A stretch of 64,000 nt of DNA, taken from NCBI RefSeq assembly GCF_057098645.1, contig NZ_CM169472.1. The stretch is one strand, 5' to 3'. Shown here one piece after another: positions 37,923-64,000 of this stretch; within the stretch, counting starts at the first letter, position 1; the number at the start of each line of letters is the position of its first letter. The notes under the pieces were generated by a model, which saw nothing but the letters and a program-made list of their open reading frames with translations, did no database searches and was not told the DNA's origin. A program made the position numbers and the translations under genes.

Positions 37923-38007
37923 GCCGAAGTGGCGAAATCGGTAGACGCAGTTGATTCAAAATCAACCGTAGAAATACGTGCCGGTTCGAGTCCGGCCTTC
38001 GGCACCA
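37923..38007 (+). tRNA. leuX: tRNA-Leu (anticodon CAA)
   Basis: 85-nt sequence GCCGAAGTGGCGAAATCGGTAGACGCAGTTGATTCAAAATCAACCGTAGAAATACGTGCCGGTTCGAGTCCGGCCTTCGGCACCA with long variable arm. Confidence 0.95.
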
Positions 38008-38171
38008 TTATTACTTCCAAGTCCATCCGAGTAAGTCCGATTATCCATTAAAAATCAATACTTTCAGCGATTTCTACGATCTTGGATCGTCCGAGGTTGT
38101 CCGTTGAAATCCGGATGTCATTGGGGGCATAATTGGGGGCATCTTAACTTCGATTAGAAATGTGCCCCCAA

Positions 38172-60794: not shown

Positions 60795-63700
60795 GTGAAA
60801 ACTCCAGTTAACCCACTTTTGCAATGGCTTAATATGTTTTTTAGTCGCCGTTCATTATCCGGAGCTGATGGACGGGCGTTATATGCTTACCGTTGTACTG
60901 ATACAGAGTACGAAAGTTTGGCAGAACTACTGCGTACATATGCCCCCCGTAGTTATCCAAGAACGATATTCATTTCCTATAGCGATGTTCTATTTAGCAT
61001 ATATGCCGCAGAGTTTATCCGCCGGACTCATACGGTCGGACACCCTAAATGGGACACAATTTTAGATTCTATTAACTGGAAAGTTCCGTATGTTCATCGA
61101 CAGAAGCTGGTTAATGATGGCATTCGCTACTGGAAAAGAAAGATAAGAAACCTGGGACAAGCTTCGGGTTATCTGCATACACTGGCTTGTGAAGGTGGTT
61201 TGCCTATCCGCATGATTGAAAATGAGAGCGGTTATTTGATTACCTATTTCAGAAGGATATATCAGGCGCTTCGTGGGCAATCATCTCAATATCCTGCCGC
61301 TAAAATTGCACAAGAATTAGGCGATACGATTCCTGTCACAATGCAAAACGAACTGGTCTATGAAATAGCCGGTGAATTCTGCGAGACTCTCTGCCGATTA
61401 CTTAGTGAGCATCCTCCTCATAGCAGTGATCCCGTTTCTGCATTACGTAAGCTCTCTCCAGACTGGCATCTTCAACTTCCACTCGTTCTCCCCGAAGCGA
61501 ATGCTGCAGAGATTGTAAGGCGATTACTTTCTCAATCTTCTGAAATACGCAGTGCAAGTAGTCTTCAGGTTGAAAGAATCTGGGTCGATGTTGATGACAG
61601 TTGGTATTGCGATGCCCGGTTCCGATTCCCGGCCACAATGCGTACAGAACAGTTAACCTCTTTGTTTGAATGCCATATTCAGCCGGAGCAGACCCGACTC
61701 ATCATTTCAGGAAAATGGAAAAATGGCGGGGCAAGGTTGGCAATGCTAAGCCGTTATGAGCAGCAAGATTGGCGGGTCGAGTTATTACCTATTGCGATGC
61801 AAAAACTCTCTGGTGCAGATGCAATGGCCGAAATCTCATTGTCGCTTCATGAAGGTCCAATTCTGTTAGGTCACACAATTCCAAAAGGCGGTTATGAACT
61901 TACTGAAGAACTTCCCTGGGTTTTTGAAGCGATGAATGAGAGTGAATCGCAGCTAAAACTTGTTGGTATGGGGTCTGTGAGTTCCAGGCTAAATGCTCTG
62001 TTTATTTCGCTACCGAAAAATAGCCATTTAGATATTAGTGGAGAAGGTGAGTTTGATATCCCAAGGTTGCTGAAAAACAGTGAACGCAGCTTAACTAAAA
62101 TAAGTGGAGTATTTAGCGTTGTTTTACATGATGGTGCTGTTTGTACAATTCGCACCCAGCAACTTTATGATTCTGCGATTGAATATTATATTAAATCGAC
62201 AGAAGTTGAACTGGTTAAATCGGATTATCCTGTCCATCGAGCCTGGCCGAAGATCGGTTGGAAAAAGGATCTGCAATATGGCATTGTACCGGAGAAAGAA
62301 CTTTTTTGGCGTTCCATTCGTTCAGGTAATAATGCCTGGTATTCTGTCGCATCAGAAATGCCAAAAGGACAGATAGAAGTCCGGCGAATAGTTAATGATG
62401 AGGTTTTATTTAGCGGTAAAGTTGTAGTTTTACCAGCAGACTTCGATATTAATATTATACCTGAGAGTGCTCAGCAAGGCATTATTATGCTTTCTGGTAT
62501 AACGGATACTAGAATTGATAAATATTCAAACAATGAAAAAGTAACACTTAAGTCCGATTATTCACAAAACGAGTGTGCTATTTATTATAATTCATCGCTG
62601 ATGCTGGAAAATACCGTTGATTTACGGGTCTCCTGGAAAGATGGTTCTAATCTTAAACTATTATTACCTAAGCCGGTTAGCGGTGGCCGATTTGTAACTA
62701 ATGATGGTTCTGTTCATTTTGATGGTGTGGCATCTATAGCACATTTGCATGGAATAGATGCTGAGTTATTAACCATATCATGTGCTGGAAGAGGATATCT
62801 TAATATCGAGTTATTGGATGAAAATCCAGTAGCTGAAAAATTCCGCTATTTACATGCCGACCTTCCTCTTTTATCAGGACGCAATGACAAATTACAACAA
62901 ATTTCACTTTATGAGAACTATAATTTGCTAAATGCTATGCTGGCATGTGCATGGAACAGCAATAGTACATTATGTGTTGATTTTTACTCTGACAGATTTG
63001 GAAAGGATAAAGCAACACTCAATATTAAACGCTACGATGGTAGTTTTATTGAACACGATCAAGGGTTACTGGTTGATATAAAAAATTCTGTTGTTTTTCC
63101 TGCAAATAGAATAGACGAACTGGTTGTTGATGCTATTTCTCTTAAGAATCCTGGCTTACACATATCATTGTTAAAAAAAGATGAGTTTGCTTATGATCTT
63201 TCAGCTCTGAATGTTCAGGATAGTCCATGGTTAATTGTGGGAAAACTTGATGGTACAGCTCGCATTGCACCAGTAATTAAATGGATGCTACCTGTATTGC
63301 AGACAAATGATTTATTACTAAATGCTCTATGCGAAGCAGACCCAGAACAGCGCAAAAAAAATTTTAATGAGCTAATTTTTGAAATAGATAACAACCCATT
63401 GCAAAATTATTGCTGTTTATTAACAGAGTATATTAAGAAATACAAAATGAATAATGGCTTATCCTTGCTGGATCTGGACTTGTTCAGAGGTATTTCGAGT
63501 AATTACCGCGTGGTTGTTCAATTGTTAATATCATCATGTCTTTCTGGTGATAGCGATACGATTTATGATATACAGGAAGAATTACCCTTTTCATGGGGAT
63601 GGATTCCCGTTTCAATCTGGAAAGATGTTTTCCAAAAATGTTGGACTTATCTGGAGAAACAGATTAACGATAAAACATTAGCATTACATATATTGCAACC

Positions 63701-64000
63701 CTTTATTGCTTTTATGAACCATCGTGCACATATCGATCGTCGGCTGGCTCCGATTGCGAATATGTTACTTACATATAGTGAGAGCCTACCAACCGGTTGT
63801 GATGTATTGCCAACTGTTAGTCGTGAGCAGTTTAATGAAGCTAAACAGATGCTATTAAGGAACCCCGACAGCTTTGGGCGTATCAGTATCTTCCCTAAAG
63901 AACTTTGGTCTAGTGCTATTACTCCAGAGTTAAAATCTGTTTTTAATAAGCTTTGGATTGAAGATAAATATCACTCACGGCTTGAAAAACGTTTTAATTT
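60795..64000 (+). CDS. very large AT-rich hypothetical protein, over 1060 codons, continues beyond the window end
   Basis: Uninterrupted reading frame from the in-frame stop at 60717 to the window end; GTG start at 60795 with SD aaggcagg; no recognisable NTPase motifs. Confidence 0.55.
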   Translation, partial: MKTPVNPLLQWLNMFFSRRSLSGADGRALYAYRCTDTEYESLAELLRTYAPRSYPRTIFISYSDVLFSIYAAEFIRRTHTVGHPKWDTILDSINWKVPYVHRQKLVNDGIRYWKRKIRNLGQASGYLHTLACEGGLPIRMIENESGYLITYFRRIYQALRGQSSQYPAAKIAQELGDTIPVTMQNELVYEIAGEFCETLCRLLSEHPPHSSDPVSALRKLSPDWHLQLPLVLPEANAAEIVRRLLSQSSEIRSASSLQVERIWVDVDDSWYCDARFRFPATMRTEQLTSLFECHIQPEQTRLIISGKWKNGGARLAMLSRYEQQDWRVELLPIAMQKLSGADAMAEISLSLHEGPILLGHTIPKGGYELTEELPWVFEAMNESESQLKLVGMGSVSSRLNALFISLPKNSHLDISGEGEFDIPRLLKNSERSLTKISGVFSVVLHDGAVCTIRTQQLYDSAIEYYIKSTEVELVKSDYPVHRAWPKIGWKKDLQYGIVPEKELFWRSIRSGNNAWYSVASEMPKGQIEVRRIVNDEVLFSGKVVVLPADFDINIIPESAQQGIIMLSGITDTRIDKYSNNEKVTLKSDYSQNECAIYYNSSLMLENTVDLRVSWKDGSNLKLLLPKPVSGGRFVTNDGSVHFDGVASIAHLHGIDAELLTISCAGRGYLNIELLDENPVAEKFRYLHADLPLLSGRNDKLQQISLYENYNLLNAMLACAWNSNSTLCVDFYSDRFGKDKATLNIKRYDGSFIEHDQGLLVDIKNSVVFPANRIDELVVDAISLKNPGLHISLLKKDEFAYDLSALNVQDSPWLIVGKLDGTARIAPVIKWMLPVLQTNDLLLNALCEADPEQRKKNFNELIFEIDNNPLQNYCCLLTEYIKKYKMNNGLSLLDLDLFRGISSNYRVVVQLLISSCLSGDSDTIYDIQEELPFSWGWIPVSIWKDVFQKCWTYLEKQINDKTLALHILQPFIAFMNHRAHIDRRLAPIANMLLTYSESLPTGCDVLPTVSREQFNEAKQMLLRNPDSFGRISIFPKELWSSAITPELKSVFNKLWIEDKYHSRLEKRFN

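Follow-up and report, generated by a model that had tools for sequence, protein, structure and literature searches.

How many elements have accumulated behind the tRNA-Leu(CAA) gene leuX in a 64,000-nucleotide stretch of contig NZ_CM169472.1 (assembly GCF_057098645.1; the whole stretch is called the window below), and did all of them enter at the tRNA? A preliminary description of positions 37923 to 64000 had proposed a P4-like phage satellite ending at a degenerate copy of the tRNA 3′ end and, beyond it, a second AT-rich island that was acquired at the same tRNA and lost its integrase. The observation was confirmed and the interpretation is partly supported: the region is probably a layered accretion at the leuX-nanS defence hotspot of Escherichia coli, assembled in four or more separate events with different mechanisms. 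This interval has been published as hotspot #37, running from yjgB (= ahr) to nanS with tRNA-Leu-CAA, occupied in 462 of 475 genomes (97.3 %) by 31 defence system types and showing no detectable mobile genetic element (MGE) in 68 % of cases; its authors could not determine the mode of mobilisation (Hochhauser, Millman & Sorek 2023, PMC10121019). The window fits this definition, with ahr (36709-37728) and leuX on one side, nanS, nanM and nanC on the distal side in its closest relatives RM12581 (locus L001) and Z1323HEC0422 (L002), and a restriction-modification (R-M) system, Zorya II, Druantia III and an endonuclease for phosphorothioated (PT) DNA as contents.

The satellite could be delimited by the comparison with empty leuX sites that the preliminary description had suggested. 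leuX is the only tRNA gene in the window (ARAGORN; Rfam tRNA) and is preceded by the core genes yjgR and ahr. O145:H28 genomes with matching flanks lack exactly 38008-52320. In RM12581, for example, the upstream 8 kb are 100 % identical and the match stops with the tRNA itself, at 38007; downstream, a match of 99.9 % identity starts at 52321, and both flank matches include the tRNA 3′ end, where they overlap. In the junction alignment, attL consists of the intact tRNA followed by satellite DNA, and attR of the satellite end, the degenerate core and the same sequence that adjoins the intact tRNA at the empty site. Over 42174-45715 and 48353-52343, the satellite backbone and phage P4 share 96-98 % identity. 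A P4-type tyrosine integrase lies beside the tRNA-borne att site, whose core is duplicated at both ends; the helper-exploitation genes psu, delta and sid have full-length matches in PHROGs and 96 % DNA identity to P4; and the alpha primase-helicase, the crr repeats, the CI immunity RNA (C4 family) and vis are all present. What the element lacks, compared with P4, is an intact epsilon gene and a small-capsid genome size, as epsilon is split by an IS21-family insertion and the length is 14.3 kb versus 11.6 kb. Judged by these alignments, the P4-like satellite is a discrete, recent and integrase-mediated insertion.

The copy of the tRNA end deserves a closer description. A search tolerating only mismatches overlooked it because of an indel; a fuzzy search with indels returned two copies in the window, leuX itself and 52322-52343. 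The second copy reads TTTGAGTCCGGCCTTCG-CACCA and differs from the 3′-terminal 23 nt of the tRNA by one substitution and one deletion. As a chance control at the looser threshold of up to 5 edits, 20 shuffles gave 3 matches in sum, so a match with 2 edits is not due to chance; a chance repeat is also ruled out by the empty-site comparison. Of the two differences reported initially, only one is genuine. The attP of P4 itself reads GATG-TTTGAGTCCGGCCTTCGGCACCA-TTCTTAC and has T where the tRNA has C, so the C-to-T difference marks the edge of the 20-bp core shared by attP and attB. On this alignment, the only true anomaly of attR is a deletion of 1 bp (ΔG) within that core.

Beyond attR the description of an AT-rich block of defence-like genes and remnants, distinct from the core genome, held up. 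The GC content is 0.50-0.57 in the core and falls to 0.32-0.45 at 52-64 kb (and to 0.35-0.41 at 39-42 kb within the satellite), Zorya II, druH and remnants of nan genes are found there, and the distribution is variable: among the 5,426 genomes searched, 96 hold at least 80 % of 52344-64000, which excludes the block as core genome. Of the usual marks of a tRNA island, this block displays the atypical composition and the variable presence and misses the proximal integrase and the distal direct repeat. No integrase open reading frame (ORF) or tblastn match was found in 52344-64000, nor up to the end of the block in L001 and L002, and the additional direct repeats that might have been expected downstream were not recovered, as no further copy of the tRNA 3′ end at up to 5 edits occurs out to fimB in L001, L002 or K-12.

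Local alignment against six comparator loci divided the block into modules with very different distributions. The intrinsic terminator next to the tRNA or the att copy, and no more than that, is shared by ~1,600 genomes; the full left flank of the following slot 1 is found in 334, pieces of the PT-DNA endonuclease (PT-RE) and nanM in ~5,100, and the nan remnants forming the left junction of the last module, an OI-172-type defence island (block B), in 463. Behind the same terminator, slot 1 carries a type I R-M system in SH21PTE31 and JA0257, whose tRNA sites are both empty, a type IIS R-M system in Nissle, SNF2 plus a methyltransferase in STEC367 and a PDDEXK nuclease in fS58a, so its cassettes vary whether or not the tRNA site is occupied. 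In the window, the slot contains a 682-amino-acid (aa) gene and a BrxL-like stump that is 85 % identical to DNA beside brxL in strain 503440, which suggests that a BREX system once occupied it; BREX has been reported solely at hotspots #1 and #37 (PMC10121019). The near-perfect palindrome after the 682-aa gene is presumably a bidirectional terminator between this gene and the stump. On the other side of the slot, the PT-DNA endonuclease, intact or as a remnant, adjoins nanS in most E. coli, and K-12 keeps only 248 bp of it.

The junctions of block B fall in remnants of nanM, nanC and nanS, with no att site there. The nanM remnant on its left is ~92 % identical to real nanM alleles (best 94.9 %), the 36-bp nanM/nanC junction is 100 % identical, and comparators have an intact second nanM at the distal end of the block. 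In strain 8178, terminator, slot 1 and PT-RE lead straight into intact nanS-nanM-nanC without block B, and in O157:H7 the part from PT-RE through block B is present with a different left part; the distal modules are therefore independent. On these distributions, the distal block is a mosaic of at least four modules, the largest of which is anchored in nan genes and not in the tRNA. The initial idea of successive acquisitions at leuX thus survives in part, as several acquisitions did take place downstream, not all of them at the tRNA.

Block B corresponds closely to a known island. The zorA-zorB-zorE operon is divergent from druH, the OI-172 arrangement (the region also has a match to NCBIfam NF038336); druE lies past the window and is present in the 99.9 % identical L001 and L002, where the block continues through ARMADA II (armABCD), insertion sequence (IS)/transposase debris and a truncated nanS to nanM-nanC-fimB. 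OI-172 likewise has zorABE divergent from druHE, then armABCD, and is 99.4 % identical in O157:H7 over 55726-64000; of its contents, the window carries only Zorya II and most of druH. The two differ in the left neighbour: O157 has an integrase remnant, which follows a second att copy, and the window has the 682-aa gene with the BrxL stump. OI-172 protects EDL933 experimentally, was found in 426 E. coli genomes and is known from O157:H7, O55:H7 and O145:H28; the preprint describing it says nothing in its text about leuX, tRNA or an integrase (bioRxiv 10.1101/2025.09.22.677730). Our literature search combining leuX and Zorya gave no result. A large ARMADA-type methyltransferase gene 3′ of druE is intact in O157:H7 (L004 37823-42757), an IS3-interrupted pseudogene in RM12581 (L001 23420-29640) and fragmentary in Z1323HEC0422 (L002 31577-33108). 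This third OI-172 system may be defective in the lineage of the window.

Did any part of the distal block nevertheless arrive with an integrase? The DNA that directly follows the att copy shares homology with the integrase-proximal arm of K-12 intB. Its terminator exists as two alleles, roughly 70 % identical, and the second immediately precedes both K-12 intB and the O157 integrase remnant behind the middle att copy. From base 4 after the tRNA, the K-12 segment between the tRNA end and intB is colinear with contigs bearing the first allele and with the O157 locus, and the colinear part becomes shorter step by step: terminator, arm and near-full integrase over 1.45 kb at 70 % identity (L023); terminator, arm and int fragments (L035, L046 and the O157 locus L004); 420 aligned nt (L029, L077); 160 nt, arm only (L010, L011, L032); and, in this window, ~52 nt of terminator with nothing aligned past it. 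Such a graded series is what decay of the integrase-proximal arm predicts and supports the idea of a lost integrase, with the correction that the block is not one island. The 52-nt terminator is probably the last vestige of the arm of an intB-type island.

Tandem arrangements do exist at this tRNA. The O157:H7 locus (L004) has the order tRNA, element with a 650-aa Int, att copy (18478-18500), int fragment, PT-RE and Zorya. A true tandem of tRNA, int1, P4-like element, ΔG core and int2 is seen in the IMG/VR contig 3300009036_000460 (L008). Contig 2859744465_000002 (L096/L097) is another tandem at tRNA-Leu(CAA); the K-12-type terminator allele comes after each of its two ΔG cores, and its two arms are 72 % similar to one another.

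The oldest layer would be an intB-type island that integrated at leuX with its own terminator and integrase; integrase and arm would have been deleted in this lineage, leaving ~52 nt of terminator beside the att copy. The space between this vestige and the PT-DNA endonuclease/nanS flank would then have served as a cassette slot, its contents probably swapped by homologous recombination in the conserved flanks and now consisting of a putative 682-aa PD-(D/E)xK nuclease and the brxL stump. A third layer would be the OI-172 block, whose junctions are visible as a decayed nanM/nanC duplicate on the left and a truncated nanS on the right and whose mechanism of arrival we infer. Latest, and shown by the comparison with empty sites, the EcoO109I-bearing P4-like satellite entered the 3′ end of leuX through its own tyrosine integrase, producing attL with an intact tRNA and an attR core minus one G, after which an IS21-family element landed in epsilon.

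Several points weigh against this order of events. Comparison of single-nucleotide polymorphism (SNP) tracts among the window, its empty sister L001 and its occupied sister L002 gave no recombination signal either way, and no recombination tract is seen, the three closest genomes differing at 6 sites in 11.6 kb and at none in the 2.2-2.4 kb upstream. The proposed exchange of cassettes by flanking homology is drawn from the pattern of conserved flanks. The terminator could also be an ancestral chromosomal leuX terminator captured by intB-type elements, and the 52 nt surviving here are too short a remnant to demonstrate that they derive, in this lineage, from an island with int.

The last of these points leads to a different account, which we consider unlikely, where the distal block was never integrated at the tRNA. 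The leuX terminator would be ancestral, the locus an integrase-independent core hotspot whose cassettes come by flank recombination, and the int genes incidental passengers or captured. Such an origin would suit the 68 % of hotspot #37 instances without detectable MGE, the presence of the same terminator right after an intact tRNA (21 of 81 metagenome contigs, 3 genomes), and the varying slot contents behind identical flanks. However, both terminator alleles are contiguous with a P4-type integrase gene, and the colinearity with K-12 intB extends up to 1.45 kb with the graded truncations expected of a decaying element arm. Identity between an element arm and the chromosomal flank beyond the tRNA end is unusual for tRNA-integrating elements, which also speaks against a purely chromosomal origin. 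That the whole 52.3-64+ kb block is one island, inserted site-specifically at leuX and later deprived of its integrase, with the satellite then placed in front, is highly improbable and as a single unit is ruled out by the independent distributions of its modules: the O157:H7 tandem with its middle att site and integrase remnant, the arm series and the IMG/VR contig with two int genes would agree with it, but the unlike module counts, the missing block B in 8178, the different left part in O157, the nan-gene junctions and the lack of a distal att copy out to fimB do not. Layered accretion thus remains our preferred reading.

The missing G of attR turned out to be connected with occupancy of the site. 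The loci compared with 52322-52343 of the window were L002, L003, L005, L009, L012 and L013-L093. Among the complete genomes examined, 6/6 occupied sites, with five unrelated left arms, have a ΔG distal att copy, and 3/3 empty sites have an intact GG tRNA beside the same terminator. A scan of metagenome contigs accepting both forms found ΔG in 56 of the 59 occupied sites (element upstream), the other 3 being GG, and in none of the 21 empty ones (tRNA upstream), all GG. The state follows the element family: CP4/PAI-type (pathogenicity island) arms are ΔG in 35/35 cases and P4-like arms in 13, with 2 GG including laboratory P4, and the O157 SpLE5-type element, which has the different 650-aa integrase, is GG in 2/2 on two flank alleles. 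In the 682-aa-gene haplotype, GG and ΔG are intermingled, and three pairs with 0 SNPs in 2.7 kb have opposite states. Cores trailed by element DNA instead of chromosomal flank are ΔG in 3/3 cases, and all attL tRNAs are GG. Clustering of the right ends of P4-like elements did not separate GG from ΔG, laboratory P4 (GG) being nearest to the ΔG satellite of the window. A search of IMG/VR for a free attP of P4-like elements returned only integrated forms and tandem arrays, from which attP is not directly readable.

We tentatively propose that the att copy lacking one G is a systematic feature of leuX elements with P4-type integrases and not random decay, produced either by an element-borne ΔG attP or by a ratchet of chromosomal scars. 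The chances are roughly even that the element carries ΔG in its attP and that the crossover falls within the terminal 5-6 nt of the tRNA gene; the tracking by family, the intermingled haplotypes, ΔG in front of element DNA and the GG state of attL all favour this. Against it stand the GG state of the P4 attP, strain 536-21, which became leuX-negative with the loss of PAI II536 (PMC6385356), and the statement that re-integration restores the complete tRNA gene (PMC3202238). Together, these three points would place the crossover to the left of the ΔG position and leave ΔG on the chromosome. The direct repeat of PAI II536 is reportedly 18 bp long, a length that would fit a ΔG attR (GTTCGAGTCCGGCCTTCG). 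Such a chromosomal scar is possible but rather doubtful, and yet another origin of ΔG appears unlikely.

leuX is a classical integration site of PAIs (PMC7545054), and experiments have demonstrated that islands of the PAI II536 type excise from it and re-integrate there (PMC3202238, PMC7545054). The satellite resembles these and other leuX islands with P4-type integrases in its target, att core and ΔG distal copy (as in the PAIs of Nissle and STEC367). It differs in being an 11-14-kb phage satellite and not a 40-120-kb virulence island, and every empty site found here has an intact tRNA, unlike that of strain 536 after island loss.

Table 1. Features of the leuX region, in window coordinates.
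Feature	Position	Strand	Basis or remark
leuX, tRNA-Leu(CAA)	37923..38007	+	last 20 nt (37988-38007) are the attL core, intact GG form
Integrated P4-like phage satellite	38008..52343	+	14.3 kb including a 2.6-kb IS; empty-site comparison and P4 identity
Integrase, 428 aa, P4-type tyrosine recombinase	38160..39446	+	Pfam Arm-DNA-bind_3, Phage_int_M, Phage_integrase
EcoO109I type II R-M cargo, int-psu hotspot	39536..42021	mixed	in place of P4 gop/beta/cII
C protein	39536-39817	+	PADLOC Control_protein, E 1e-44
Restriction endonuclease (REase) EcoO109I	39912-40730	+	PDB 1wtd EcoO109IR, 272/272 residues, 624 bits, E 1.9e-187; PADLOC REase_II
5-methylcytosine (m5C) methyltransferase (MTase)	40768-42021	-	Pfam DNA_methylase, 220 bits; PADLOC MTase_II
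psu	42338-42910	-	PHROG 6366
delta	42984-43484	-	PHROG 603
sid	43481-44233	-	PHROG 6165
vis (ORF88)	44757-45023	+	PHROGs/NCBIfam
icd-like/cI ORF	44975-45610	+	PHROGs/NCBIfam
isrK-like and c4-a1b1 elements	45082-45172	+	Rfam, above gathering score
CI RNA, C4 family	45271-45358	+	Rfam RF01695, 74 bits (gathering score 45)
IS21-family IS	45716..48352	+	istA 45835-47481, istB to 48253; Pfam rve and Mu-transpos_C_2, IstB_IS21
Replication module	48526..52326	+	orf151, orf106 (DUF5375), alpha, crr, orf111; PHROGs
alpha primase-helicase, 777 aa	49452-51785	+	TIGR01613, P4-family primase
crr 120-bp repeats	51831-51950, 52012-52131	+	match the annotated P4 crr repeats
attR	52322..52343	+	TTT from the satellite, followed by the 20-bp P4 att core minus one G (GAGTCCGGCCTTCG-CACCA)
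Intrinsic terminator, leuX-type (hairpin and T7)	52344..52395	+	conserved beside tRNA or att copy
Variable slot 1	52396..55690	.	682-aa ORF, 44-bp palindrome, BrxL/Lon-like peptidase fragment
682-aa protein, candidate nuclease	53021-55069	+	invariant PD-(D/E)xK motif
44-bp near-perfect palindrome	55092-55135	.	directly after the 682-aa gene
C-terminal fragment of BrxL/Lon-like peptidase	~55468-55647 (~55185-55647 when delimited more widely)	-	sequence comparison
PT-DNA-binding HNH restriction endonuclease (PT-RE)	55694..56566	-	NCBIfam NF045808, 438 bits; Pfam HNH_2
nan-locus remnants	56637..56914	-	245-bp internal nanM piece and 36-bp nanM-start/nanC-stop junction
OI-172-type defence island, left part (block B)	56915..64000	.	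Zorya II and start of Druantia III
zorE	57104-58207	-	PADLOC ZorE2, 586 bits
zorB	58211-58918	-	Zorya II operon
zorA	58925-60577	-	PADLOC ZorA2, 1003 bits
druH (Druantia III)	from 60789, past window end	+	PADLOC DruH3, 2430 bits

Regarding the gene content of the satellite (Table 1), int and the first 1.4 kb have only ~84 % DNA identity to P4 and to the satellite of Z1323HEC0422, compared with 97-98 % elsewhere, which indicates that the end with int and cargo is exchanged as a module between satellites. With a matching REase, an m5C methyltransferase and a C protein all present, the cargo is, by homology, an EcoO109I R-M system. Alignment to P4 resumes on the cos-proximal side at 42174. Type II R-M systems have been described in the psu-int hotspot of P4-like satellites (Rousset et al. 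2022, PMC9122126), and the EcoO109I system in a P4-like prophage by Kita et al. 1999, as cited in PMC9122126. Our satellite agrees with those elements in its backbone, in the cargo position beside cos, in the type II R-M class and in the enzyme EcoO109I itself.

The immunity and excision region (44757..45610) contains matches above the gathering score to the Rfam families RF01695, RF01394 and RF03163. The IS21-family element lies within epsilon, the helper derepression gene, and is flanked by a target duplication GTTTGT(TG) of 6-8 bp; colinearity with P4 and L002 is broken there with an overlap of 8 nt at P4 coordinates 8061-8068. The leftover epsilon ORF (48282-48533) covers only positions 31-95 of phrog_10016. 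This insertion and the size of 14.3 kb, probably too large for a P4-size capsid, would probably impair helper derepression and packaging.

The nature of the 682-aa protein of slot 1 was more difficult to determine. It has no significant family in Pfam, NCBIfam, PHROGs or PADLOC, and a profile search against PDB sequences gave no match. Homologues are confined to Enterobacterales, and in an alignment of seven, down to 40 % identity, E451, D477, E490 and K492 are invariant. The AlphaFold2 model has a mean predicted local distance difference test (pLDDT) score of 56; the invariant residues lie on its only well-predicted part, which shows the alpha-beta-beta-beta core typical of PD-(D/E)xK nucleases. 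The best Foldseek match, Upx (9wuf), was rejected as untrustworthy (template modelling (TM) score 0.18). From motif and model, the protein is a candidate nuclease-type anti-phage protein; since the slot is filled by R-M systems or nucleases in other strains, its gene is a candidate uncharacterised defence gene.

Elsewhere in the window, yjgR abuts ahr directly (35077-37728); both here and in O145:H28, the idn (L-idonate) genes that K-12 has beside ahr (idnK in L006) are missing. Between cybC and nrdG, at ~6196-6435, lies a solitary antitoxin gene of the RelB/DinJ family, for which the O145:H28 annotation shows no toxin partner. The GC content drops to 0.34-0.36 at two places in DNA that is otherwise core: the one at 22004-23671 coincides with a hypothetical protein of 555 aa encoded between tabA and argF, and the one at 26052-27248 with yjgN.

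The architecture and each of its major components are already described. The locus shares with hotspot #37 its position, the nearly constant occupancy, Zorya and BREX among the defences, occasional P4-type satellites and the prevailing lack of a recognisable MGE. It differs from the hotspot as published, which is treated as one interval, in that an att-bounded slot at the tRNA, a slot from terminator to PT-RE and a nan junction can be told apart, and in the decay series of the integrase arm. Only this series and the coupling of ΔG with occupancy are potentially new; the main value of the finding is a correct annotation of the window, and otherwise it re-describes a published hotspot and published elements.

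The arm decay series, together with the sub-structure, offers a concrete answer to the question of how the defences of hotspot #37 move without a detectable mobile element, the proposal being decayed island arms combined with an exchange of cassettes across conserved flanks. leuX governs fimB translation and virulence traits in uropathogenic E. coli, and in the textbook picture a tRNA gene is rebuilt from the DNA of the integrating element. If ΔG is borne by the element, the tRNA would never be rebuilt from element DNA. If the ratchet is true, loss of the element would leave a defective leuX (as in 536-21), the site would have to stay occupied and elements would replace each other, which would help to explain the 97 % occupancy of hotspot #37. 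The coupling of ΔG with occupancy is therefore relevant to the crossover position of P4-type integrases and to the question whether leuX islands are effectively locked in.

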